DNA from: Myxococcota bacterium
Lineage (GTDB): Bacteria > Myxococcota_A > UBA9160 > UBA6930
DNA length: 64,000 bases
NCBI GenBank assembly: GCA_965223415.1
Contig: OZ245002.1
Location: 2,048,001-2,112,000, forward strand
Direction of reading: 5' to 3'
Shown: positions 14,336 through 29,503 of the stretch, one piece after another
Layout of the letters: every line of letters starts with the position of its first letter
How positions within the stretch are numbered: position 1 is the first letter of the stretch
Made by a program: the position numbers and the translations under genes
The notes under the pieces: generated by a model
Told to the model about the DNA's origin: nothing
Databases searched by the model: none
Seen by the model: only the letters and a program-made list of their open reading frames with translations

Positions 14336-15373
14336 TTACCCGAGCGGCCCCTTCGACGGGCCGGTGCGCCGCTCCGCGGGCCATGGCTGCAGGTCCAGGG
14401 GGCTGCGCACTCCGAAGCCGCCGCGGTTCAGCACGTGGGTGTAGACCATCGTCGTGCTGACACTGCGGTGGCCCAGGAGCTCCTGGACCGTGCGGATATC
14501 GTGGCCGCTCTCGAGGAGGTGAGTCGCGAAGCTGTGGCGGAGGGTGTGGCAGCTGACACGCTTGGCGAGCCCCGCGCGCTGCGCCGCATTCTTCACGGCG
14601 CGCTGTACCGGCGCTTCGCTGAGATGGTGCCGTCGGTCGCCGCCGCCACGGGGATCTCGGGAGCGGCGAGCCGCAGGAAAGACCCAGAACCACGTCCAGC
14701 TCCGCGCGGCCTTCGGGAACTTTCGCGCCAATGCGTCGGGCAGGAACACGCCGGGGCGCCCGTCCGCGACGTCGCGTTCGCGGAGGACGCGCGCTGCTTC
14801 GAGCTGGGCACGCAACGGCTCCACCAGCGCATCGGGCAGCATCGTCCTGCGATCGCGGCGGCCCTTGCCGTCCCTCACCAGGACCTCGCGGCGAGCGAAG
14901 TCCAGATCCTTCACGCGGAGACGCAGTGCCTCGAGCAGCCTGAGGCCCGAGCCGTAGAGCAACCCAGCGACGAGGGAGGAAGTGCCCGTGAGCTCCGCCA
15001 GCAGCGCCTGCGTCTCGCTGACGCTGAGGACGACCGGGAGGCGGCGCGGCTTGCGGGCGCGAACCGGAGCGAGGCTGCCGAGATCACGCCCCAGGACCTC
15101 GCGGTAGAGGAACAGCAGGGCGCCAAGCGCCTGGTTCTGCGTGGACGGCGCCACGTCTTGCTCGACGGCGAGCCACGTGAGGAACGCCGACACCTCGGCG
15201 GCACCCATGTCCGCGGGGTGACGCGTCCCCTGATGGAGGATGAAGCGCCGGATCCACCCGACGTACGCCTCTTCCGTCCGGAGGCTGTAGCCGCGAACCC
15301 GGATCGCGTCCCGAACCTGATCGAGCAACCGCGGCGGCTGCCCTTCTCCCCGTTCCGGGGAGCGTTTCGGCAT
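14336..15373 (-). CDS. intI: Integron integrase
   Basis: [41 protein letters not shown], plus the integron-specific insertion [13 protein letters not shown]...WVFPA. Confidence 0.97.
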
Positions 15374-15680: not shown

Positions 15681-16406
15681 ATGAAGCGAGACTTCATCAT
15701 TTCCGAGATCAAGCGCACAGCCTCCGACAACGACGGGGTCCCTCTCGGCCAGCGCGCCTTCGCCACCACAACGGGGATCCGCAGGCACGACTGGTATGGG
15801 CGTTTCTGGCCGAACTGGAGCGCCGCGCTCTCAGACGCCGGTTTCGAGCCCAACGTCTGGCAGGACAAGATTCCCGAAGACCTCCTGCTCGAGAAACTCG
15901 TCGAACTCATCTCTGAACTCGACAAATTCCCCACCGACGCGGAGCTTCGGCAAAAACGACGCGAGAATCCGAGCTTTCCAAGCCACAGCACCATGCATCG
16001 GCTCGGTCCCAGAGCCGAAAGGGCTCGGCGAATCATCGACTACTGCTCGACCGACGAGGACCTCTCCACGGTTGTAGCTATCTGCACCTCCATCGCTGAG
16101 CAAGCAGTCCCGCCGGCCAATGTGCCCGCCGACCCCAGCGAAGCTGAAGAGTTCGGAACCGTCTACCTCATCAAATCCGGACGTCATTACAAAGTCGGAA
16201 GAACCAATGCATTTGGGCGTCGCGAGCGCGAAATCGAGCTCCAGCTTCCCGATAAGGCGCAGACGGTTCATACCATCACCACGGACGATCCTGTCGGAAT
16301 CGAAGCCTACTGGCACCGCCGATTCGCCGATCGTCGCAAGAACGGAGAGTGGTTCGAGCTGTCGCCCGAAGACATTCGAGCCTTCAAGAGGCGAACCTTC
16401 ATGTAG
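15681..16406 (+). CDS. Cassette 1: GIY-YIG (T5orf172-like) nuclease with N-terminal helical repeats
   Basis: VYLIKSG..YKVGRT...E..WHRRF...NGEWF; lower GC than host genes. Confidence 0.85.
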   Translation: MKRDFIISEIKRTASDNDGVPLGQRAFATTTGIRRHDWYGRFWPNWSAALSDAGFEPNVWQDKIPEDLLLEKLVELISELDKFPTDAELRQKRRENPSFPSHSTMHRLGPRAERARRIIDYCSTDEDLSTVVAICTSIAEQAVPPANVPADPSEAEEFGTVYLIKSGRHYKVGRTNAFGRREREIELQLPDKAQTVHTITTDDPVGIEAYWHRRFADRRKNGEWFELSPEDIRAFKRRTFM

Positions 16407-16414
16407 CGCCTGCC

Positions 16415-16550
16415 GCCCAACAAGGCGCTGCAGCTGACGAGCCACAGCTCGTTCCAATCGACCCGTGGTAGTGTTTGGCATCGAATTTGGAAGCTTCGAG
16501 CGGGCTGCAGAGGCGCTGTGGCTCGCAGCTGAGCGCCAGGTCCGTTAGCC
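16415..16550 (+). other. attC site 1 (R' core hit by IS110, then IS1380)
   Basis: R'' GCCCAAC, L'' GCAGCTGAC, L' GCAGCTGAG, R' GTTAG|; removing both ISs restores GTTAGGC. Confidence 0.92.
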
Positions 16551-18073
16551 CTGATCCGGCATTGCGAGGTGTAGGGAAAGCCCGGAATTGAAAGTGGCTC
16601 CGTCGGTGTGCTTGATGGAAGTGCCAACCACCATCATGCCTCCGAGGAGCCACATTCGTGAAGCTAAGCAGACACCGGATTCGAGCCCGCGTCAAGGGCG
16701 AATTGTCGATCGCCTTCACGGATGAGGCGCTGACGAGCTACGGCGGGCTGGAGCTGTTCCGGCGCTTCTTCGACCGCTTTTGGGCAGAGCGCCTGAAAGC
16801 GGCCTTTGCGGATCGGGCGTTCGACTCGGACTACGGATCCTTCCGCTGCATGCTGGTGGTGGTGGGGATGCTGCTGCTGGGAGGGAGCCGTCTCTCGCAT
16901 GTCCGGGTGCTCGATCGGGATCCGTTGTTTCGGCGGTTCGTCCGATTGCAGCGGCTTCCGGACGAGCGGACCCTGGCGAGGAACCTGAAGGAGCTGACGT
17001 CGGGCTACCGCGATCGTCTGAACGAACTGCTGCGGGACATGGCCTATGGAACCCACACAGGGCTCGGCTTGGAGCGGGCCACGATCGAGCTGGACGGCAC
17101 CGTGCTTCGGACGGGCGAGTACGTGGACGGCGCCGAGCGCGGCTTCAACCCACATCACCCGAAGGACCCGTCCTACTACCCGCTGACGGCGCACCTGGCG
17201 CAGACGAGCCAGCTGCTCGGCGTATGGAACCGGCCGGGCAATGTGAACGATGCGGTGGGCGCTGCGGAGAAGCTGGCCTTTCTCCTGGGCGACGCGAAGC
17301 GGCGCCTCGATCGGGTCCCGATCGAGGTGCGGCTCGATGGCGCCTTCTTCCAGAAGGCCGTTCTCGAGGTTCTCACGGCCTCTCGCGTGGAGTACGCCCT
17401 CAAGGTCCCCATGTGGCGCTGGCTCGGCGTGCGTGAGAAGATCGCCGCCCGGAAGCGTTGGCACCGCGTCAACGCGAGCGTCGACGCCTTCTCCGTCGTC
17501 CACCGGATCCCACAGTGGAAGCGCTGCGAGCGGATCGTGGTGTTCCGCAAGAAGGTCTCCGGGCGAAGCGCGAAGAACTTCCAGCTCGACCTCTTCACCC
17601 CGGACGATGGCCACTACGAGTACTCGATGGTCGCGACGAACAAGCGGACCAGCGAGGCCGCCGTCTGGGCCTTCATGGCCGGACGCGGCGGCCACGAGAA
17701 GACGCTGGCCGAGCTCAAACAGCACCTGGCGTTCGCCACCATCCCGACCCAGGACTGGGACGCCAACAGCAACTGGCAGCTGCTCAGTGCCCTGACCCAC
17801 AACCTGGTGCGGGACTTCCAAGCCACGCTTGGCCTGCCAGAGCGACCCAACGGCCGAAAGCGGACCGCCCGGCTCCGCTTCCCCTCGCTCCGCACGCTCC
17901 GCTTCGAGCTGATCCAGCTCCCTGGCCGCATCGCTCGGCCTGCCGGACGCGCTTCGCTCCGAATCGCCGCGTCCTCGCGCAGCCGCTCCACCATCCGGGC
18001 CGCCGAGACCGCGCTCGCCGCGTGAGCCCGCCAGACCTACGCTCGGATCCGTGATCTCAATGCCGGATCAGGG
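16549..18073 (+). mobile_element. IS1380-family insertion sequence
   Basis: 16-bp perfect TIR CCCTGATCCGGCATTG; 4-bp TSD TTAG at 16545-16548 and 18074-18077. Confidence 0.92.
16658..18025 (+). CDS. IS1380-family DDE transposase
   Basis: LTSYGGL, ELDGT, RPGN, RLDGAF, RGGHE..AELK. Confidence 0.9.
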   Translation: MKLSRHRIRARVKGELSIAFTDEALTSYGGLELFRRFFDRFWAERLKAAFADRAFDSDYGSFRCMLVVVGMLLLGGSRLSHVRVLDRDPLFRRFVRLQRLPDERTLARNLKELTSGYRDRLNELLRDMAYGTHTGLGLERATIELDGTVLRTGEYVDGAERGFNPHHPKDPSYYPLTAHLAQTSQLLGVWNRPGNVNDAVGAAEKLAFLLGDAKRRLDRVPIEVRLDGAFFQKAVLEVLTASRVEYALKVPMWRWLGVREKIAARKRWHRVNASVDAFSVVHRIPQWKRCERIVVFRKKVSGRSAKNFQLDLFTPDDGHYEYSMVATNKRTSEAAVWAFMAGRGGHEKTLAELKQHLAFATIPTQDWDANSNWQLLSALTHNLVRDFQATLGLPERPNGRKRTARLRFPSLRTLRFELIQLPGRIARPAGRASLRIAASSRSRSTIRAAETALAA

Positions 18074-18092
18074 TTAGATACTCCCTTCGTCG

Positions 18093-19088
18093 TCAACCCT
18101 TCGTGGCGAAGAATTTCTCGCCAAGGAAGTCCTGGTCGTGGCGGAGCATGCCGTAGATGGCGTGGAGCAGCTTCCGCATGACGGCGACGAGTGCTTGCAT
18201 CTTGGTTTTGCCCTTGGAGAGCAGCTTCTCGTAGAAGGCCTTCACGTTCGGTTCCCAGCGTGCAGCGACCATCGCAGGAAGAAAGAGTGCGCGGCGAAGG
18301 TGGGCGTTGCCGGTCTTGCTGATGCGAGCTGGCTTGTGCACAGAGGTGCCCGATTGAAACTGTCGGGGGTCGAGGCCCGCATGCGCGACCCATTGCCGGG
18401 TCGTCATGTCCTTGGGCAAGGTGCCTAGCTCGGCGAGCAACTGGATGCCGGCTGCGTCGGCGATACCCTTGATCGATGTGATGTGGCCGAAGTCTCTGGC
18501 GAGCTCGGGGCTCTGCTCGATCACCTTCAACGCTTGCTTGCGCAGCCGATCGATTCGCCCCTCCAGGAGCTCGATCAGTTCGCGGATGTCTTGCTTCACG
18601 AACTCACTGAGCTCCTCGCTCTGGTCGTTGGCATGGAGCCGGTTCTTCTCCTGCGTCACGGTCTTGCTCAGAGCCTCCACGCGGCGGGAGAGGGCCCGTA
18701 CCTCCAGAATTCGGGGGTCCGGCGGAGTCCAGGCGGAAAACTCCATGCGCATTCCGAACTCGAGAATCGTTTCCGCATCGAGCGCATCCGTCTTGGAGCG
18801 TTGAAGCGATGCCTTGGCGAACGCGGCAATGGCCCGCGGGTTCGCCACCATCACCTGGGACGCCTTCGCACGGTGAAGCGCGAACGCGAGGTCGAGGCCG
18901 TACACCCCGGTCGATTCCAGGACGACGCGCGCCGTCGCATTCCCCTTCGTGGCCCACCGAATCAGCCTCTGGTGGCCCTTGGGATCGTTCGCAAAGACCA
19001 GCCCGCCCTCGCGAGTTCCGTTCCGGTCGATGGCGACGACGAGCTCCTTCGCCCCGACGTCCACGCCCACGTAATGACACTTCTTCAA
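18093..19088 (-). CDS. IS110 DEDD recombinase/transposase (331 aa)
   Basis: TTG start after GGAGG; GVDV, LESTG, KTDALDA (DEDD); QSGTS serine; GNAHLR; MRKL. Confidence 0.95.
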   Translation of the reverse strand: MKKCHYVGVDVGAKELVVAIDRNGTREGGLVFANDPKGHQRLIRWATKGNATARVVLESTGVYGLDLAFALHRAKASQVMVANPRAIAAFAKASLQRSKTDALDAETILEFGMRMEFSAWTPPDPRILEVRALSRRVEALSKTVTQEKNRLHANDQSEELSEFVKQDIRELIELLEGRIDRLRKQALKVIEQSPELARDFGHITSIKGIADAAGIQLLAELGTLPKDMTTRQWVAHAGLDPRQFQSGTSVHKPARISKTGNAHLRRALFLPAMVAARWEPNVKAFYEKLLSKGKTKMQALVAVMRKLLHAIYGMLRHDQDFLGEKFFATKG

Positions 19089-19139
19089 GGTCTCTCCTCC
19101 CCGTGATAAGCTGGGACCCGGGTCTCCCGACCCTGCACA

Positions 19140-19305
19140 TTCACCTACGGACCTTGTAGACGCAGGCTCTCGGGCCTCGGATACTCCACGGCATGGGTGA
19201 CGAGGGCGGGAGGCCCATCTAACGGACAAGCTCTCTGGCTTCAGGCAGCGACGGCCTTTCCCGGGAACCCATCTCGGAGTCTCACTCAGGCCCGAAGAGC
19301 CTGCT
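19140..19305 (-). ncRNA. Predicted bridge RNA of IS110 element A
   Basis: 5' hairpin, then loop with guides UCGCUGCCU (19243-19251) and GUCCGUUAG (19219-19227) matching the target, then loop with GGAGUAUC (19180-19187) and UACAAG (19153-19158) matching the donor; RNA ends approximate. Confidence 0.88.
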
Positions 19306-19324
19306 CAGAGGTACAAGGCGGCTC

Positions 19325-19711
19325 ATGCGGAGTTCGTTGCTTGCACTTGCGGTTCTGCTGACGGCTTGTAGCGATCCTTGGGAGTGCAAACTCGACCTCC
19401 GAGAACAGCTATCGGAGATCTCCACAACGGAGGTGCGTCTCCGCGACGTCACCGATTTCGATTGGACCACGGTGAGCGTCTTCGGCCCTTACACTCCCGG
19501 CGAGGAGATTAGGAAGCTCGGCGTCACCTATGAACCATCTCCCCTGGGGTTCGATCACGTACCTGAGTCTGCTGCCGAGCTCGTCTTCCTAAGCGAGGAT
19601 CAGCCGGTCTGTCGGCATACATGGTTTCACCATGACTCACGATACAGCTTCCGTGCCTGGGAAGAGTTCGATCCAACAGATCCCGTCTTGGTTCCCTATC
19701 GAACTCCCTAA
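19325..19711 (+). CDS. Cassette 2: hypothetical lipoprotein
   Basis: Lipobox LLTAC; FDW..V..FGPY motif; ATG just after the restored GTTAGGC. Confidence 0.8.
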   Translation: MRSSLLALAVLLTACSDPWECKLDLREQLSEISTTEVRLRDVTDFDWTTVSVFGPYTPGEEIRKLGVTYEPSPLGFDHVPESAAELVFLSEDQPVCRHTWFHHDSRYSFRAWEEFDPTDPVLVPYRTP

Positions 19712-20358
19712 GCATCTGAACGATCCGGCTGATGGTTGACAGAAGTCCAGGTACATCCTTTACACGCCTGTGATCGTTCCGGTTCGCTGATCGTACCTTC
19801 CGAGGAGGGTGCGGTAGTAGATGATGTTCCAGAGCCCGTCGCCGATCTCTTCGAGTCCGATGGTCTCGCCGGCCAGGGCATGGGAGAGAAACGGCAGCCG
19901 GGGCTGCATGCGGAAGGTGCCGGCGTTGTTGACGCGTCGCACCTCGAGGTGGGCCGGATACTCGGGCTCGGGGAGACTCTCTGGGTAGCTGCGCTTGGCC
20001 GGGCTCCAGAGCTCGTCCGGGACCTGATCGCCGATGCCTTCGTGGGGCCGCTCGGCGTTGTAGCGGTCGCGAAAGCGGTCGAAGCGCCGCTGCTGGGATC
20101 GTCGGGTGGCTGCCGGAGGCCGAGCCGTCTCCTTCTTCAGCTCGCGGTGCATCCGTTCGTGAGCTCCGTTCTCCTGCGGGCTCGCGGGTCGGATCCGTTG
20201 GTGGACGATGCCGAGCTTCATCCACCAGACGTTCAGCTCGCAGAGGCCGTGGATGCCGGTTGTCGCAGGACGTGATATTCGAGGGCTAAGAGGACACGTA
20301 GATTTGCGCACCTCCTGTTGAGCCGCTGCGCGGCACGTTCCCCGTGAGGGAGGGGGGC

Positions 20359-21630
20359 GTGGGGCAGCGGCGACTGAGGCAGGAGGAAGTGATGACGATC
20401 GAAGTGCTGCACGAGCGGGGGTGCTCGAACCGGGAGATCGCCCGCCAGCTGGGGATCCGGGAGAGCGCGGTGCGCTACCGGCTGAAGCGGCTGGCGGAGG
20501 GGGCGCGAGACGGCCGGAGCGGGAAGCCCTTCCTGGCCGAGGCGGTCCACGAGGTGATCGCGGAGTGGCTGGAGGCGAGCTCGGGAGGCCGTGGCGTGAA
20601 CCTGCAGGAGCTTCACGAGTTCCTGGTGGAGGAGCACGGGTACACGGGGAGCTCCAAGAGCGTGCAGCGGTACGTGCGGGCCCGGTTCCCGAGACCGAAG
20701 GTGCGGAGCCGGCGTCGGGTGGAGACACCGCCCGGGGCGCAGGGTCAGGTGGACTGGGGCGAGTTTCCGGGCGTGCGGATCGGGGGCCAGGAGGTGGACC
20801 TGCATGCCTTCCACCTGGTGCTCTCGCACTCGCGGCGAGAAGCGGTGGTGTGGTCGGAGCGGGCGGACACGCTGGCGTGGCTGGACGTGCACAACCGGGC
20901 CTTCGAGCGGCTGGGCGGGGTGCCGGCGGTGCTGCGGGTCGACAACGTGAAGACAGCGGTGGCGAAGGGGGCGGGGCCATGGGGGACGGTGAACCCGGCT
21001 TACGCGAGCTATGCCGGGGCCCTTCGCTTCCACGTGGACGCCACCCGTCCCCGCCAGCCGCAGGAGAAGGGGAAGGTGGAGCGTCGGATCCTGGGGCACC
21101 GGCGGGGCTTCGATCCGCGTCGGCGGGAGCACGAGAGCCTGGAGTCGCTGCAAGCGTGGACGGACGGCCAGGTGGCGCGCTCGAGCCACCGGCGGCAGTG
21201 CCCGGCGACGGGCACGACGGTCTTCCAGGCGTGGGAGGCGGAGAAGCCCCATCTCGGGGCCCTGCCCGAGCGGCTTCCCGAGCCCTTCGACCTGGCCGTG
21301 ATGCGACGTGTCGGGCGCGACGCCACGGTGCGCTTCGAGGGGCGTACCTACAGCGTCCCCTTCCGCTTCGTCGAGCAGAGCGTCGAGGTGCGCGGCTGCG
21401 CCCGGCAGGTGCAGGTCTGGGCCGAGGGCTCGGTGGTGGCCGCGCACCCGCGCCACACGCGAAGCCGCCTGCTGCTGGACCCGAGCCACTACGAGGGGCC
21501 GAGCACGGAGGGGGTGGAGGCGCCCGTACCGCTCGGGCGCATGGGTCGACGCCTCCAGGAGCTGTGGGCGATGGAGCCGGAGCAGCGGCCGATCGACCTC
21601 TATGCCGATCTGGCGGAGGTGGCGCGATGA
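20359..21630 (+). CDS. istA: IS21 transposase
   Basis: HTH, ETPPG.QGQVDWG, VDNVK, KGKVER; start estimated. Confidence 0.93.
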   Translation: MGQRRLRQEEVMTIEVLHERGCSNREIARQLGIRESAVRYRLKRLAEGARDGRSGKPFLAEAVHEVIAEWLEASSGGRGVNLQELHEFLVEEHGYTGSSKSVQRYVRARFPRPKVRSRRRVETPPGAQGQVDWGEFPGVRIGGQEVDLHAFHLVLSHSRREAVVWSERADTLAWLDVHNRAFERLGGVPAVLRVDNVKTAVAKGAGPWGTVNPAYASYAGALRFHVDATRPRQPQEKGKVERRILGHRRGFDPRRREHESLESLQAWTDGQVARSSHRRQCPATGTTVFQAWEAEKPHLGALPERLPEPFDLAVMRRVGRDATVRFEGRTYSVPFRFVEQSVEVRGCARQVQVWAEGSVVAAHPRHTRSRLLLDPSHYEGPSTEGVEAPVPLGRMGRRLQELWAMEPEQRPIDLYADLAEVAR

Positions 21631-22427
21631 CGGCGGGAAACCCGGTGCCCAAGAAGGGCGGCAAGGTGGATCTCGACCCGACCCGCGAGCGGCTCGTGCG
21701 CCTCGGCCTCCATCACGCGGCCGAGCACATCGGCGAGGAGCTGGCCCGAGCGACCAAGGACGACCTCGTGCCCCACCGCTTCCTCGACCTGCTGCTCGAG
21801 GCCGAGCTGCAGCACCGCGAGGAGCGGAGGATGAAGACCTCGCTCCGTCTCTCGGGCCTTCCCACGGGGCAGACCCTCGGCAACTTCGACTTCGCCTTCC
21901 AGCCGAGTGTGGAGCGGAGCCGGATCGAGACGCTGGGCACCTGCGCGTGGATCCGGGCCAAGGAGAGTCTGCTGATCCAGGGTCCGCCGGGAGTGGGCAA
22001 GACCCACCTGGCGGTGGCCCTGGGGGTGCGGGCCGTGGAGAACGGCTTCTCCGTGGCCTTCCATCGCCTCGAGGACCTGCTGGCGGCCCTCAAGCGCGAC
22101 GCCGAGATCAGCCCGCAACGGCTGCGGCGGCGCAAGCACATGAACGTGGCGCTCCTCGTCATCGACGAGGTCGGCTTCGAGCCCATGACGCGCCAGGAGG
22201 CGAGCCTCTTCTTCCGGCTCGTCTCCTACCGCTATGGGAGGGGCTCGATCCTGATCACCACGAACAAGGGCATCGCCGACTGGCCCGAGGTGCTGGCGGG
22301 CGACGAGGTGCTGGCCACCGCCATCCTCGATCGCCTCCTCCACCACAGCCAGGTGCTCAACATCTCGGGGCGGAGCTACCGGCTCCGCGAGCTCGAGCAG
22401 GCCGCGGGGCAAAGCGCCCAGCGTTGA
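21627..22427 (+). CDS. istB: IS21 helper ATPase
   Basis: GPPGVGKTHLA, IDEVG, AILDRLLHH, GRSYR. Confidence 0.95.
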   Translation: MTAGNPVPKKGGKVDLDPTRERLVRLGLHHAAEHIGEELARATKDDLVPHRFLDLLLEAELQHREERRMKTSLRLSGLPTGQTLGNFDFAFQPSVERSRIETLGTCAWIRAKESLLIQGPPGVGKTHLAVALGVRAVENGFSVAFHRLEDLLAALKRDAEISPQRLRRRKHMNVALLVIDEVGFEPMTRQEASLFFRLVSYRYGRGSILITTNKGIADWPEVLAGDEVLATAILDRLLHHSQVLNISGRSYRLRELEQAAGQSAQR

Positions 22428-23311
22428 GGCCCCAGAGGGCGGCCTGACGGCCGTGCTCTCCTTCGGAGAGCGGAAGAGAAGAAGGAAGAACCGAACATCA
22501 ACCCAGGGGGGTGCGCAAAACTAGCCGTCCTCTTAGCGCGCAAGAGATGACGTCCCTCGACACCGGTCGAGGCGAAGGGCGCACCGTTGTCGCTGCGGAT
22601 CGCCTCGGGAAGCCCGACCTCGCGGAACAGCCGTCGGAAGACGGGCTTCGCATGCTCCGTCCTCACGGAGGGCAGCCCTCGGCACACGAGGAGCTTCCGG
22701 CTGAAGTGGTCGGTCACCGTGAGCGGGTAGCAGTAGACGCCTGTCGAGGGACGTCATCTCTTGTGCGAAACTGGCCCTTGAAGTCGACGGGCCAGACCTC
22801 GTTCGGCCGCTCCGTCTGGAGCGGGGCGGCACCCGGATGGTCCCACTTCCGCCGCCGGCGGTTCTTGCGCAGCTTCCCGTGGCGATCGAGGATCGCGTTG
22901 ATCGTGCTCTGGGCCGGCAGCGCTCTTCGCGGGTGCCGCCGGGCCAGCACCAGGCGAAGCTTCTTCGCCCCCCAGCCGTACTGGGCCCGAAGCGCCAGGA
23001 CCTCCCGCTCCACGGCCTCGGGCGTCCGATGCGGGCAGCTCCTGGGCCTTCGCGAGCGCTCCTCGAGGCCCTCGCCCGCCTCGGCCCGCTCGAGCCACTT
23101 GTAGCCCGTGGGCCGGCTGACCCCGTAGCGCTCGCAGAGCTCCTTCATCCCCCACTGGCCGCTCGCATGATCGGCCACGAAGGCCTTCCGCTGTTCCGTC
23201 CGATTCGTTTGCATCCAAGGCATCCCTGGGTGTAAACGATGTACCCGGACTTCTGTAAACCATGTCCCCGGACCGTACCGTCCGCCGCCTAACCAGCGGC
23301 TGCAGCTGACC

Positions 23312-23557
23312 CGTTTAGGGAGTGTCAACTCCAATGATCGCGAAGCACGTGTGGGTCTTGGTGGTGTCCTCCAACGGAATCGGCTTGCGTCCCTGCGGGT
23401 TCGGGTTCAGTCCAAACGCGTTGTCGGCCTCGTGGGCTCAATGAGGGGTTCGGGGCGACGGTGGTGAATCGGGGCCAAGGGCTCATGGGCCGCAGTCAGC
23501 TGCCCGCCTACCGTCTTCGTTGGAACACAAGCGAGAAGGGGTCCTGGGGGAGCGGGG
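23312..23557 (-). ncRNA. Candidate guide (bridge/seek) RNA region of element B copy 1
   Basis: Non-coding end downstream of the transposase, with GCAGCUGAC (23495-23503) identical to the attC sequence abutting the insertion point. Confidence 0.6.
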
Positions 23558-24607
23558 CTACGCCATGCCAAGGCACCTCCGGAGATCGAAGGCCTCGCCG
23601 CGGGTGAGCGTGACCCAGACGCTGACGAGGAGTCTGCGAGCCAAGGCCATGCGGACCTTGTTCTTGTGGACGCGGGTCCGCATCGTCTTCGCCCAGGCAC
23701 GAACCAACGGGTCGTCCTTCATCAGGCGAACCGCCCATTGGCTGACGATCCAGCGGAGCTCGGCCTGGCCTTGGCGGGTCATGCGGCCGTGGTGGGCGTG
23801 GTCGGCTGACTGGTTCACCTTGGGGGTGAAGCCGGCGAAGGCCGAGACCGCACGGGGGCCTCGGAATCGGTGCGGGTCGCCGATCTCGGCGAGCAGCGTG
23901 GCAGCCGATTGCGTCCCGATGCTCGGGAGCTCCTGCTCGAGGGCCTGGACGTCGGGATCCTCTCGCCCGATCCGTCGGATCTCCCGATCGAGAGCCAGCA
24001 CCTGGCCCTGCAGGCTATCGAGCACCTGGAGCAGGGCCTTGAAGGCGGTCTGCATCTCCAGGGTCGGCAGGGTGACGGTGCGGAGCTTCTCCCGGCTCGG
24101 CTTGGTATAGAGCGCGCTCGTGGGAGCGGGAATCCGGTAGGCGTTCAGGAAGCCCCGGAGCTGGTTCACGGCCTGTTGGCGCATCTGGACGAGGCGGTGG
24201 CGGACCCGAAGGAGCTTCCTCCTCCCGTACTCCTCGTCGCTCGGGTAGTAGGTCGTTGCCACCCGATCCAGATCACCGAGCCAGAGCCGGCGTGCAATCT
24301 CGGCTGCATCTCGCCGGTCCGTCTTCTTGCCGAGCTTCTTCAGGTCGAGCTTGCGCGGATCACAGACCAGAACGTCGAGCTGCGCCTCTCGGCAGGCGTT
24401 GACGAACCACCGGTTGAGGCCCAACGCCTCGACGGCTACGCGGCAATGGGGTCCGAAGAACTTCAGCCGCTCCACGACCCCGAGGCCCTGTTCAAGGCTC
24501 TCGGAGCGGATCCTCTCCTCGGCGATCTTCTCACCCCGCGCATCCAGCACGCAGATCTGGATCACGGTGCGATGCAAGTCGATCCCAGCGAAGTACTCTG
24601 TCGTCAT
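23558..24607 (-). CDS. IS110/IS1111 transposase (349 aa), copy 1
   Basis: GIDLH, VEA, KTDRRDA (DEDD); NQSA serine; ARRL. Confidence 0.93.
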   Translation of the reverse strand: MTTEYFAGIDLHRTVIQICVLDARGEKIAEERIRSESLEQGLGVVERLKFFGPHCRVAVEALGLNRWFVNACREAQLDVLVCDPRKLDLKKLGKKTDRRDAAEIARRLWLGDLDRVATTYYPSDEEYGRRKLLRVRHRLVQMRQQAVNQLRGFLNAYRIPAPTSALYTKPSREKLRTVTLPTLEMQTAFKALLQVLDSLQGQVLALDREIRRIGREDPDVQALEQELPSIGTQSAATLLAEIGDPHRFRGPRAVSAFAGFTPKVNQSADHAHHGRMTRQGQAELRWIVSQWAVRLMKDDPLVRAWAKTMRTRVHKNKVRMALARRLLVSVWVTLTRGEAFDLRRCLGMA

Positions 24608-24765
24608 GGTCAGTCTCCTTGGGGAGTGTTTGTTGGAACACAGCCAAGGTGGCTGTTCCTCGGTGGACACCCAAAACCGGCCATAGAAGGACGTCTGAAA
24701 AGCGGCCATAGGGGCTGACGCCCAGGACGTTGACGACGGCGAGGGACCTGCGATCCCCCGCCGCC

Positions 24766-27103: not shown

Positions 27104-27318
27104 AACCCCTCTGTCCTGGGCGCGGCCCTTTGGCCGCCTTTGAGACGTCCACCTTTGGCCGGTTTTCAGACGTCCACCGAGGGCTGTTCTCCAAGGAGCT
27201 GACCTCCCTATACCCTCCGGGCACCCGCGCGTTCCAACCGGGGCGTGGTACCCTTAGGGTTCCACTCAGGCGCCTCAGCGAGCCTCGGGGCCGGCCCGGC
27301 AGCTGAGCCGCCTGTCCG

Positions 27319-27540
27319 TTAGGCGGCGTTGGGCTTCCAGCGCATGGATGGCCGCTTCTTCGTGCGAGCGCACTCGCCGAGATAGAGATTGATCAGTGTT
27401 TGGTACGGGATGTCCGTCTCTTCCGACAGCTCACGGAAGTACGCGAGCGTCTCCTCGTCCAGACGAATTGTGATCTGCTTCTTCAGTCGCCTGGCGTACG
27501 GGTTCCTCTTTCCCTTCGAGAAGTCGTAGTTCTTTCTCAT
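27319..27540 (-). CDS. brnA: Cassette 3: BrnA/CopG-like antitoxin
   Basis: MRKNYDFSKG.RNPY...KKQITIRLD...YF...PYQTLIN; stop TAA lies inside GTTAGGC. Confidence 0.88.
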   Translation of the reverse strand: MRKNYDFSKGKRNPYARRLKKQITIRLDEETLAYFRELSEETDIPYQTLINLYLGECARTKKRPSMRWKPNAA

Positions 27541-27827
27541 CGCTTCCACCGCCTCTCGTAGTCTCGTCTCTCGGCCCTGTTGGCGCGCCGCGCCGAGATG
27601 ACGCGAATCACGTGGTCTTCCTCTCGGTAGCAGTGGCAAACCACCAGGGCCCGGAGTGCAGCCGAAAGCCCAATCATCACGAAGCGGTCCTCGGCTTCAT
27701 CCGGGTCCTCGATCAAGATCGCAGCTTCGTCGTAGAAGACCGTCCGCGCTTCCTCGAACGAAACACCGTGTTTCTTCTGATTGGCCTTGTCCTTCTTCGG
27801 GTCCCAGTCGAAGTCGATATCGGCCAT
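27537..27827 (-). CDS. brnT: Cassette 3: BrnT family ribonuclease toxin
   Basis: FDWDPKK...N.KKHGVSFEEA..VF...IRVISARRA. Confidence 0.92.
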   Translation of the reverse strand: MADIDFDWDPKKDKANQKKHGVSFEEARTVFYDEAAILIEDPDEAEDRFVMIGLSAALRALVVCHCYREEDHVIRVISARRANRAERRDYERRWKR

Positions 27828-27892: not shown

Positions 27893-28138
27893 CGTTTAGG
27901 GAGTGTCAACTCCAATGATCGCGAAGCACGTGTGGGTCTTGGTGGTGTCCTCCAACGGAATCGGCTTGCGTCCCTGCGGGTTCGGGTTCAGTCCAAACGC
28001 GTTGTCGGCCTCGTGGGCTCAATGAGGGGTTCGGGGCGACGGTGGTGAATCGGGGCCAAGGGCTCATGGGCCGCAGTCAGCTGCCCGCCTACCGTCTTCG
28101 TTGGAACACAAGCGAGAAGGGGTCCTGGGGGAGCGGGG
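27893..28138 (-). ncRNA. Candidate guide RNA region of element B copy 2
   Basis: Same as copy 1; target-matching 9-mer at 28076-28084. Confidence 0.6.
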
Positions 28139-29188
28139 CTACGCCATGCCAAGGCACCTCCGGAGATCGAAGGCCTCGCCGCGGGTGAGCGTGACCCAGA
28201 CGCTGACGAGGAGTCTGCGAGCCAAGGCCATGCGGACCTTGTTCTTGTGGACGCGGGTCCGCATCGTCTTCGCCCAGGCACGAACCAACGGGTCGTCCTT
28301 CATCAGGCGAACCGCCCATTGGCTGACGATCCAGCGGAGCTCGGCCTGGCCTTGGCGGGTCATGCGGCCGTGGTGGGCGTGGTCGGCTGACTGGTTCACC
28401 TTGGGGGTGAAGCCGGCGAAGGCCGAGACCGCACGGGGGCCTCGGAATCGGTGCGGGTCGCCGATCTCGGCGAGCAGCGTGGCAGCCGATTGCGTCCCGA
28501 TGCTCGGGAGCTCCTGCTCGAGGGCCTGGACGTCGGGATCCTCTCGCCCGATCCGTCGGATCTCCCGATCGAGAGCCAGCACCTGGCCCTGCAGGCTATC
28601 GAGCACCTGGAGCAGGGCCTTGAAGGCGGTCTGCATCTCCAGGGTCGGCAGGGTGACGGTGCGGAGCTTCTCCCGGCTCGGCTTGGTATAGAGCGCGCTC
28701 GTGGGAGCGGGAATCCGGTAGGCGTTCAGGAAGCCCCGGAGCTGGTTCACGGCCTGTTGGCGCATCTGGACGAGGCGGTGGCGGACCCGAAGGAGCTTCC
28801 TCCTCCCGTACTCCTCGTCGCTCGGGTAGTAGGTCGTTGCCACCCGATCCAGATCACCGAGCCAGAGCCGGCGTGCAATCTCGGCTGCATCTCGCCGGTC
28901 CGTCTTCTTGCCGAGCTTCTTCAGGTCGAGCTTGCGCGGATCACAGACCAGAACGTCGAGCTGCGCCTCTCGGCAGGCGTTGACGAACCACCGGTTGAGG
29001 CCCAACGCCTCGACGGCTACGCGGCAATGGGGTCCGAAGAACTTCAGCCGCTCCACGACCCCGAGGCCCTGTTCAAGGCTCTCGGAGCGGATCCTCTCCT
29101 CGGCGATCTTCTCACCCCGCGCATCCAGCACGCAGATCTGGATCACGGTGCGATGCAAGTCGATCCCAGCGAAGTACTCTGTCGTCAT
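28139..29188 (-). CDS. IS110/IS1111 transposase (349 aa), copy 2
   Basis: Identical protein to 23558-24607. Confidence 0.94.
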   Translation of the reverse strand: MTTEYFAGIDLHRTVIQICVLDARGEKIAEERIRSESLEQGLGVVERLKFFGPHCRVAVEALGLNRWFVNACREAQLDVLVCDPRKLDLKKLGKKTDRRDAAEIARRLWLGDLDRVATTYYPSDEEYGRRKLLRVRHRLVQMRQQAVNQLRGFLNAYRIPAPTSALYTKPSREKLRTVTLPTLEMQTAFKALLQVLDSLQGQVLALDREIRRIGREDPDVQALEQELPSIGTQSAATLLAEIGDPHRFRGPRAVSAFAGFTPKVNQSADHAHHGRMTRQGQAELRWIVSQWAVRLMKDDPLVRAWAKTMRTRVHKNKVRMALARRLLVSVWVTLTRGEAFDLRRCLGMA

Positions 29189-29503
29189 GGTCAGTCTCCT
29201 TGGGGAGTGTTTGTTGGAACACAGCCAAGGTGGCTGTTCTCCAAGGAGCTGACCTCCCTATACCCTCCGGGGAACCGCCCCTTCCAATCGGGCCATGGTA
29301 CCCTGGGGTTCCCATGGCGCGCTCTCGCCATCCGACAGGTGTCGGTTCTTCTGGCTCTTCACGGCGTCTCCGTGGCCTGGGGTTGGCGGTCAGCGCTGTC
29401 GGCTGCGGCGGAAGCGCGAGCGGCTCTCGTAGAGCCATGCAGCACGCCCGTTGGGCAGCATGACCCTCCCTGGCACCAAGCCAAGCACTACTGGGAACCA
29501 GCT

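Follow-up and report, generated by a model that had tools for sequence, protein, structure and literature searches.

The Locus

We describe an insertion sequence, here called ISa, that lies in an integron cassette array of a Myxococcota bacterium. The window, i.e., the whole stretch of DNA that was analyzed, comprises 64,000 nucleotides (GenBank assembly GCA_965223415.1, contig OZ245002.1, positions 2,048,001 to 2,112,000), and coordinates are window positions unless stated otherwise. An initial annotation of this stretch had proposed that ISa encodes an IS110-type recombinase whose RNA is naturally programmed against the attC sites of integrons. The locus is composed of the following features.

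14336..15373, minus strand: integron integrase gene intI (TIGR02249, 449.7 bits against a cut-off of 265)
15681-16406: open reading frame of cassette 1, MUG113/T5orf172-domain protein
16412..16548, plus strand: attC site of cassette 1 (inverted-repeat test, 0/200 shuffles as good; partner arm ends 125 nt from the insertion point)
16540..16548, plus strand: left half of the original target, GTCCGTTAG, made up of the spacer and the 5 initial bases of the attC R' core; an IS1380-family element now parts it from ISa
16549..18073, plus strand: IS1380-family element at the attC/ISa junction (NF033539, 211 bits; terminal inverted repeats ccctgatccggcattg; TTAG 4-bp duplication)
18078..19317, minus strand: ISa, IS110-group insertion sequence, 1240 bp including one copy of the CT core
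18093..19088, minus strand: gene for a DEDD transposase and probable bridge recombinase, 331 amino acids, TTG start, GGAGG upstream (Pfam, NCBIfam and PDB matches)
19089..19315, minus strand: 5' non-coding leader, predicted bridge RNA
19318..19322, plus strand: right half of the target, GCGGC, which completes the R' core GTTAGGC and opens cassette 2
19325-19711: open reading frame of cassette 2, lipoprotein-like protein

The ISa protein carries the two Pfam domains of IS110-family transposases, PF01548 (3.8e-26) and PF02371 (1.5e-20), as an N-terminal DEDD (RuvC-like) domain and a C-terminal Tnp domain, and it scores 218 bits against NCBIfam NF033542 (cut-off 140). Its matches in the PDB are ISCro4 (E 4.5e-49) and IS621 (E 2e-46), and identity to the IS621 protein is 36% by tblastn. 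The gene is preceded by 229 nt of non-coding DNA and followed by only 15 nt. According to the parts of PMC11187229 at hand, a long non-coding region lies upstream of the gene in the IS110 group and downstream of it in IS1111; ISa thus has the arrangement of the IS110 group. Protein homology and gene layout together support the assignment of ISa to the bridge-RNA elements of this group.

Identical Copies and an Empty Site Define the Ends of ISa

The window copy is bracketed by AG at 18076-77 and 19316-17, which reads CT on the element strand. Eight matches to ISa are found in the host genome (5.83 Mb in one contig, 71% G+C), and six of these are copies that are 100% identical over 1242 nt, with reading frames intact in all of them, differing flanks, and AG on either side on the window strand (CT on the element strand). 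The site of one copy, L001, is empty at the orthologous position in genomes of the same genus, where CCGTTAGGCG runs uninterrupted; one of these, G404, reads ...TACCGTTAGGCGCGC... at this place. The core dinucleotide is present on both sides of the copies and once in the empty site, with no other duplication. The empty site therefore fixes the ends of the element and shows that a single copy of the core preceded insertion. On the element strand, the donor junction reads GGAGTAT-CT-TGTAC. The boundaries, the CT core and the restored attC core of the initial annotation hold base for base.

One may ask whether these copies are inert relics with a leader that no longer acts as a guide RNA. In keeping with this, no RNA run turned up, and no joints or circle junctions were seen in contigs from four sequencing runs (Logan) of the same organism; the pieces X5-X7 are letter-identical to this genome with its own flanks, so these contigs are not independent of it. 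Set against it are the perfect identity and intact frames of the six copies, and a leader that is more conserved than the coding DNA, being almost unchanged among relatives at 82-83% protein identity where the coding DNA has diverged. We consider inert relics extremely improbable. A candidate promoter was noted by eye:

18091..18096, minus strand: TTGACG, candidate -35 box

In an excised circle, this box would sit 17 nt from TACCTC (19308-13) and might form a junction promoter, with a poor -10 box in this copy; among relatives, TTGAC keeps a constant distance from the right end. As part of the overall explanation favored below, ISa is very probably an active or recently active element of the IS621 type.

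The Leader Is Predicted to Encode a Two-Loop Bridge RNA

Read on the element strand, the leader contains the following parts.

19287..19303, minus strand: 5' stem-loop CAGGCUCUUCGGGCCUG
19211..19257, minus strand: target-binding loop (guides match the flanks of copies and of 46 metagenome loci)
19253-57 / 19211-15, minus strand: outer stem of the target loop, AGGCC / GGCCU
19243-49, minus strand: left target guide (LTG) and core, GCUGCCU
19228-41, minus strand: inner stem-loop of the target loop
19219-27, minus strand: right target guide (RTG) and core, GUCCGUUAG
19126..19210, minus strand: invariant helix enclosing the donor loop, CCCGCCCU / AGGGUCGGG (19203-10 / 19126-34)
19141..19200, minus strand: donor-binding loop (guides equal the element's own ends)
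19196-200 / 19141-45, minus strand: outer stem of the donor loop, UCACC / GGUGA
19180-87, minus strand: left donor guide (LDG), GGAGUAUC
19164-77, minus strand: inner stem-loop of the donor loop
19153-58, minus strand: right donor guide (RDG), UACAAG

The hairpin, the two loops with their stems and all four guides lie where the initial annotation had placed them. GCUGCCU has the sense of the left target arm and core (GCCGC-CT) at 7/7 positions, one of them as a G-U pair (U opposite G), and GUCCGUUAG is the exact complement, over 9/9 positions, of the core and right arm (CT-AACGGAC). In the donor loop, GGAGUAUC equals the right end of the element, GGAGTAT-CT (8/8), and UACAAG is complementary to CT-TGTA at its left end (6/6). 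As set out in the portion of PMC11208160 available, the 5' side of an IS621 loop has the top-strand sense of the left arm and core, and its 3' side complements the core and right arm. The ISa guides follow these strand rules, and the order of target loop and donor loop, correctly recognized in the initial annotation as that of IS621, agrees with the same account and with the IS621 copy that we read. When the leader was shuffled 200,000 times by mononucleotides, the RTG 9-mer occurred in 0.1% and the LTG 7-mer in 5.6% of shuffles, and only 2/200,000 contained both guides in the right order within 45 nt, which excludes chance.

How well are the fold and a homology to the IS621 RNA supported? Several observations weigh against them. 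Folded as a single sequence, the leader adopts a minimum free energy (MFE) structure other than the two-loop fold (z-score -1.12; 29/200 shuffles fold as well), at -98.1 kcal/mol compared with -87.1 kcal/mol when the two-loop model is enforced. A covariance model of the clade RNA (R1) finds a weak partial match on the IS621 leader (E 0.19), at the donor-loop region and thus in the correct place and on the correct strand. In addition, kinship among the relatives inflates the permutation and shuffle statistics. The evidence for the fold comes from an alignment of 15 leaders from relatives that span 34-100% protein identity: over these, 90.9% of cells in the two-loop model are paired and 11/30 pairs have changes on both sides, a value reached by 0/500 shuffles, and slid controls are 16-55% paired. 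All 8 pairs of the invariant helix are identical in 15/15 sequences. RNAalifold independently recovers this helix as well as the inner stem of the target loop, but arranges the pairs of the donor region in another way. The two loops that the initial annotation expected to see on folding are thus not given by the MFE structure of the single sequence but are supported by compensatory changes in the 15 relatives. In Rfam, the window has 0 matches at the gathering threshold, and Rfam 15 holds no fitting family; one match in the leader at a lax threshold (E 7.9) was dismissed as chance.

The Target Is the R' End of Integron attC Sites

The core sites of attC have the forms RYYYAAC (R'') and GTTRRRY (R'), and integron integrases cross over within the R' core at G↓TT. 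In the window, an attI-like GTTGGGC is found at about 15661, ahead of cassette 1. The attC of this cassette has its R'' site, GCCGCCCAAC, at 16412-21 (GCCCAAC at 16415-21), followed by L''/L' arms, GGCGCTgCAGCTGaCGAGCCA versus GGCGCT-CAGCTG-CGAGCCA, with two extrahelical bases on one side; its R' site, GTTAG plus GC, is split between 16544-48 and 19318-19. Removal of the IS1380 element and ISa joins GTCCGTTAG (16540-48) to GCGGCTCATG (19318-27), which rebuilds the R' core GTTAGGC with the beginning of cassette 2 behind it. The target thus belongs to a genuine integron, whose attC sites have it at their R' end. It comprises 14 bp, GTCCGTTAG followed by GCGGC on the integron strand and GCCGC-CT-AACGGAC on the element strand, and ISa is inserted inside the R' core, 4 nt 3' of the integrase crossover and antisense to the array. 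The TTAG duplication of the IS1380 element is found at 16545-48 and 18074-77. If ISa came first, it met a 14/14 target; if the IS1380 element came first, the target was 10/14. Either of the two may have inserted first.

Among the six copies, L003, L004 and the one in the window each occupy the complete 14-bp target in an attC right end. Two further perfect sites in the genome are unoccupied; one is at genome position 2,773,801, also an attC right end, and the other lies in the window:

27314..27327, plus strand: free 14-bp site with a perfect match, GTCCGTTAGGCGGC, at the R' end of a further attC, one of only two such sites in 5.83 Mb

The remaining copies speak against a strict specialization. 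L001 (at CCGTTAG-GCGGC, between two genes), L002 and L006 (3/6 copies) occupy partial matches outside attC, mainly at the core and right arm, and the left-arm match in register is poor for two of them (L002 0/5, L006 2/5). The initial annotation had named copies at sites unrelated to the guide as evidence that would count against it, and on this point the result is mixed, with 3/6 copies at full targets and 3/6 at such partial matches. The attC specialization of ISa is shown mainly by the relatives and metagenome loci described below.

These copies bring up the view that ISa is not tied to integrons in any special way: its target would be a short GC-rich 14-mer, of which attC ends merely supply the repeats in this genome, just as repetitive extragenic palindromic (REP) sequences do for other IS110 members. 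That half of the copies lie outside attC agrees with this view, and so does the statement, in the part of PMC11208160 consulted, that IS110 members generally occur in whatever repeat their guide matches. However, by composition only ~0.16 perfect sites would be expected in the genome, and 5 are present, each of them an attC end; moreover, the guide has been retained through deep divergence of the protein (three subclades with good support, different families, metagenomes), where the flank is again an attC R' end. We regard the absence of an integron relation as quite improbable.

A different question is whether pairing is sufficient, or whether the hairpin nature of attC or a small local hairpin at the core acts as a second determinant. 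Precedent is provided by ISPpu10, for which the excerpt at hand of bioRxiv 10.64898/2026.03.19.712850 reports a target stem-loop, and by eye a possible hairpin at attC (GCCGCC...GGCGGC), and likewise at L001 and L006, has the core in its loop or at the edge of its stem. No obvious hairpin is seen at L002, however, and pairing alone accounts for the flank consensus. A second determinant is thus conceivable, but we think it unlikely.

Apart from the six copies, the genome contains a decayed ISa relative (L007, C1:2528880-2529290), which keeps the left end, the leader (99 bits with the leader covariance model) and the gene start, and is truncated at an inverted attC R'' arm; on the left, it is likewise flanked by ...GCAGCCGC-CT.

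Guides Track Flanks among Relatives

A protein search of 401 genomes of the phylum gave matches in 18, and a reference-genome scan added three loci. In the seven relatives with 54-83% identity and a readable leader (L009, L010, L013, L014, L015, L017 and L018), the target loop ends ...GTTAG in 7/7; the guide is exactly GTCCGTTAG in 4/7 (L009, L010, L017 and L018), and the other three depart from it in one or two of the four leading guide bases. The flanks of relatives in this range read CT-AACG.... L016 is cut before the leader, so that only its attC flank is visible. An attC partner arm is found beside L009, L016, L017 and L018 and is doubtful for L015. Contrary to expectation under attC targeting, no significant partner arm is detected within 400 nt of L010 and L013. 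An integron integrase scores above the cut-off in 4/5 host genomes of these relatives, and in G213 it is encoded on the same contig as the element. There (L017, contig C272), it lies ~1.1 kb from the ISa relative and is, judged by strand, apparently co-directional with the cassette array; in the window, intI is divergent.

Relatives at ≤51% identity have other guides, which match other flanks: L019 has the guide GUAGCGGAG and the flank CT-CCGCT, L020 and L021 have UAGGGGCU and TAGGGG-CT, and an element on a Salinibacter ruber plasmid has AU core guides and AT core flanks. No attC-type repeat was found beside L019 or L021. Guide and flank thus co-vary in L013, L015, L019, L020/L021, L025, L027 and the Salinibacter element, in agreement with the expectation of the initial annotation that guides would track flanks among homologs, as they also do over 46 metagenome loci (see below).

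Two unusual arrangements were noted. L015 (62.5% identity) has the left junction GCCGC-AT and the left guide GCCGCAU, and its right junction and right guide keep CT/AG; the core is thus mismatched between the arms, co-varying with the guide. In L025 and L027 (34-39% identity), two target-loop-like modules apparently stand in tandem upstream of the donor loop, and both modules of L027 resemble the flanks, which form a short direct repeat (CTCCGTGC-CT-CCGTGG).

A search of 72,556 sequenced plasmids gave no relative above 60% identity, and hence no sign of the lineage in clinical mobile integrons.

Metagenome Loci Extend the attC Guide

A scan of metagenome contigs by the target loop alone yielded 49 loci. 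The left flank, readable in 46, is mostly GC[CT]GC-CT, and agreement between guide and flank over these loci was matched by 0/5000 flank permutations under strict pairing and by 1/5000 when wobble pairs were counted. Right flanks of at least 12 nt are available at 23 loci and of at least 70 nt at 20. After the core they read A in 23/23, A in 22/23, C in 22/23 and G in 22/23, with the consensus CT-AACGGAT, whose final T pairs with a guide G as a wobble; CT-AACG as a whole is present in 22/23.

Are these flanks attC sites? A strict detector (RYYYAAC and MFE pairing of AAC with GTT) accepted 5/22 flanks; it was judged too strict and replaced by a local inverted-repeat test against shuffles, which misses short attC sites such as those of L017 and L018, where the head window overlaps the partner arm. 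By this test, an imperfect inverted repeat is significant in 14/20 of the flanks with 70 nt or more; it ends 51-143 nt from the insertion point and has the two extra bases typical of attC (e.g., GGCGCT-CAGCTG-C versus GGCGCTgCAGCTGaC). The other 6/20, two of which are the same insertion, have no significant partner arm within 400 nt and count against attC as the general target. In a quick tree, all 37 rows with the attC guide fall on one side of a weak branch (support 42), and three subclades are strongly supported; as the guide itself served to select the metagenome rows, the tree speaks for breadth rather than for independent clustering. A diverse clade from several bacterial families and from soil and sediment metagenomes keeps this guide, which points to a long-standing specialization, parallel to but separate from that of the IS1111-attC group. 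With regard to the integron specialization originally claimed, relatives, metagenome loci and 3/6 copies agree with it, but the other three copies sit at near-cognate sites elsewhere.

Some attC positions might alternatively have arisen without transposition, by the integron integrase moving a composite cassette that begins with ISa. Insertion 3' of the G↓TT crossover assigns the element to the downstream cassette, GTTAGAT at the left junction still fits GTTRRRY, and the right flanks of L017, L018 and L062 (AACGCGC or AACGCTC) match the guide only up to the crossover side. Yet mismatch tolerance explains these three flanks equally, no case adjoining attI was seen, and in 21/23 right flanks, which carry GG as bases 4-5 following the core, the match continues past the crossover. 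Such cassette movement appears rather unlikely as a source of the positions described here.

Comparison with Known Systems

Like IS621 and ISCro4, ISa combines a two-domain DEDD recombinase with an upstream leader in which a 5' stem-loop, a target loop and a donor loop are predicted, has a CT core, and has an LTG that would pair with the bottom strand and an RTG that would pair with the top strand. The IS621 copy that we read has the same layout as ISa, and its ends, ACAGTAT-CT-TGTAT, are very similar to those of ISa, GGAGTAT-CT-TGTAC. The two differ in their target, which is ATCAGGC-CT-AC for IS621 and the attC R' end for ISa, and in the length of the RTG including the core, which is 9 nt in ISa and 4 in IS621; the covariance model of the ISa clade does not significantly detect the IS621 RNA.

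The IS1111-attC group (ISPa21, ISPst6, ISKpn4 and ISPa25) resembles ISa in having a DEDD transposase, in being specific to attC, and in lying antisense to the array. According to the sections of PMC11187229 at our disposal, ISKpn4, ISPst6 and ISPa25 have seekRNA matches to their attC target, and the seekRNAs of ISKpn4 and ISPst6 are bound by the transposase. The group inserts near the 5' end of attC, antisense (PMC3001079, in part). In these elements the non-coding region is downstream, subterminal inverted repeats are present and the 5' end of attC is occupied, whereas ISa has an upstream leader and lies in the R' core at the 3' end. ISa lacks both defining features of the group and thus works like it without being a member; the difference in position from this group, R' 3' end as opposed to 5' end, had been recognized in the initial annotation and agrees with the part of PMC3001079 examined.

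Guides matched to a host palindromic repeat are also known from the REP-targeting IS110/IS1111 elements ISPpu9, ISPpu10 and ISPa11, of which ISPpu10 also needs a target stem-loop (bioRxiv 10.64898/2026.03.19.712850, as far as available). Unlike in those members, the repeat used by ISa is the recombination site of another mobile system, so that the element interacts with cassette traffic. Group IIC-attC introns, too, are attC-specialized and antisense (PMC3001079, in the same part), but they employ a retrohoming ribozyme and a reverse transcriptase, whereas ISa would employ an RNA-guided recombinase.

In the literature searched, with ISfinder outside its scope, no IS110-group element with attC specificity is described, and the words "integron", "attC" and "cassette" do not occur in bioRxiv 10.64898/2026.08.14.744561. 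An "IS110" in a paper on a blaGES-5 integron proved to be ISPa21 of the IS1111 group. The suspicion of the initial annotation that this specificity had not been described thus holds for the IS110 group within the literature searched, but RNA-guided targeting of attC as such is known from ISKpn4, ISPst6 and ISPa25 (PMC11187229, same sections).

Neighboring Elements and a Second attC-Associated Transposon

The cassette array holds a second, unrelated element with a DEDD transposase, ISb, which has 26% identity to ISa over 155 amino acids. Two of its copies are in the window:

27895-29265: ISb copy (gene 28139-29188, minus strand)
23283-24658 and 27182-27263: ISb copy, split

All 4 copies of ISb in the genome lie in attC just after the R''-L'' arm (5' side) and antisense; the other two are beside L003 and L004, where ISb and ISa hold both ends of the same attC. 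The non-coding region of ISb, ~244 nt, is downstream of its gene, and the two ends of the element look like subterminal inverted repeats (TATAGGGAG / CTCCCTAAA). In its behavior ISb is similar to the IS1111-attC group; on plasmids, however, it is matched best by haloarchaeal ISHvo10-like genes at ~30% identity, and not by ISKpn4 or ISPa21.

Between 19760 and 27170, insertion sequences are piled up in the array. One IS21-like element (gene 20344-21630 and following) splits an rve-type (IS3/IS481-like) element (19760-20275 and 22376-23334), and a second (24730 to ~27170) splits the ISb copy. The cassettes also encode, at 27537-27827 (minus strand), a protein containing a BrnT-family ribonuclease toxin domain (PF04365, 2.5e-29).

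Discussion

Given the ends, guides and flanks described here, we propose that ISa is an IS621-type element that is guided by a bridge RNA to the R' end of attC sites, and we consider this explanation as a whole very likely. The 229-nt leader would encode the bridge RNA, whose donor loop would pair with the joined element ends (GGAGTAT-CT-TGTAC) and whose target loop would pair with the 14 bp GCCGC-CT-AACGGAC, the LTG with the bottom strand and the RTG with the top strand. In the chromosomal integron family of this bacterium, these 14 bp form the R' end of attC. Strand exchange by the DEDD recombinase at the CT core would then place ISa within the R' core GTTAGGC (7 bp), in every case antisense to the array. 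Homology to IS621 suggests that such an RNA is produced, is bound by the recombinase and guides insertion.

What might be the advantage of such a position? We envision a scenario in which its several aspects belong together, with an adaptive position, hitch-hiking on cassettes, discrimination of R' from R'' by a long guide and an attC niche shared with ISb; as a joint reading this is speculative, and we put it forward as a possibility rather than an expectation. Insertion 4 nt past the crossover leaves GTTAGAT (GTTRRRY), whereby ISa might come to head the downstream cassette while the upstream attC is spared. If so, the integron integrase could carry ISa between integrons, and so between hosts. 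Just as tentatively, the unusually long right guide of 9 nt might read the unpaired spacer GGAC and thereby separate R' from the otherwise identical R'' (GCCGC-CT-AAC on the other strand). If the joint reading were true, attC sites would be a niche partitioned between two guide-RNA transposons, ISa and ISb.

ISa, a canonical bridge-RNA element by its features, stands for a clade that is widespread in the environment and represents a clear new lineage of a known type with a notable natural program, and not a new mechanism, as the concept of a DEDD recombinase naturally RNA-programmed against attC is already known from the IS1111 family. Its example indicates that attC targeting has arisen in the IS110 group as well as in IS1111. 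ISa and its relatives would then provide a natural and widespread case of a two-loop bridge RNA aimed at the recombination site of another mobile system. This offers a ready natural pair of guide and target for asking how a long right guide sets end- and orientation-specificity in a palindrome, and the same pair may also suit questions on target structure and on effects on cassette excision and expression.

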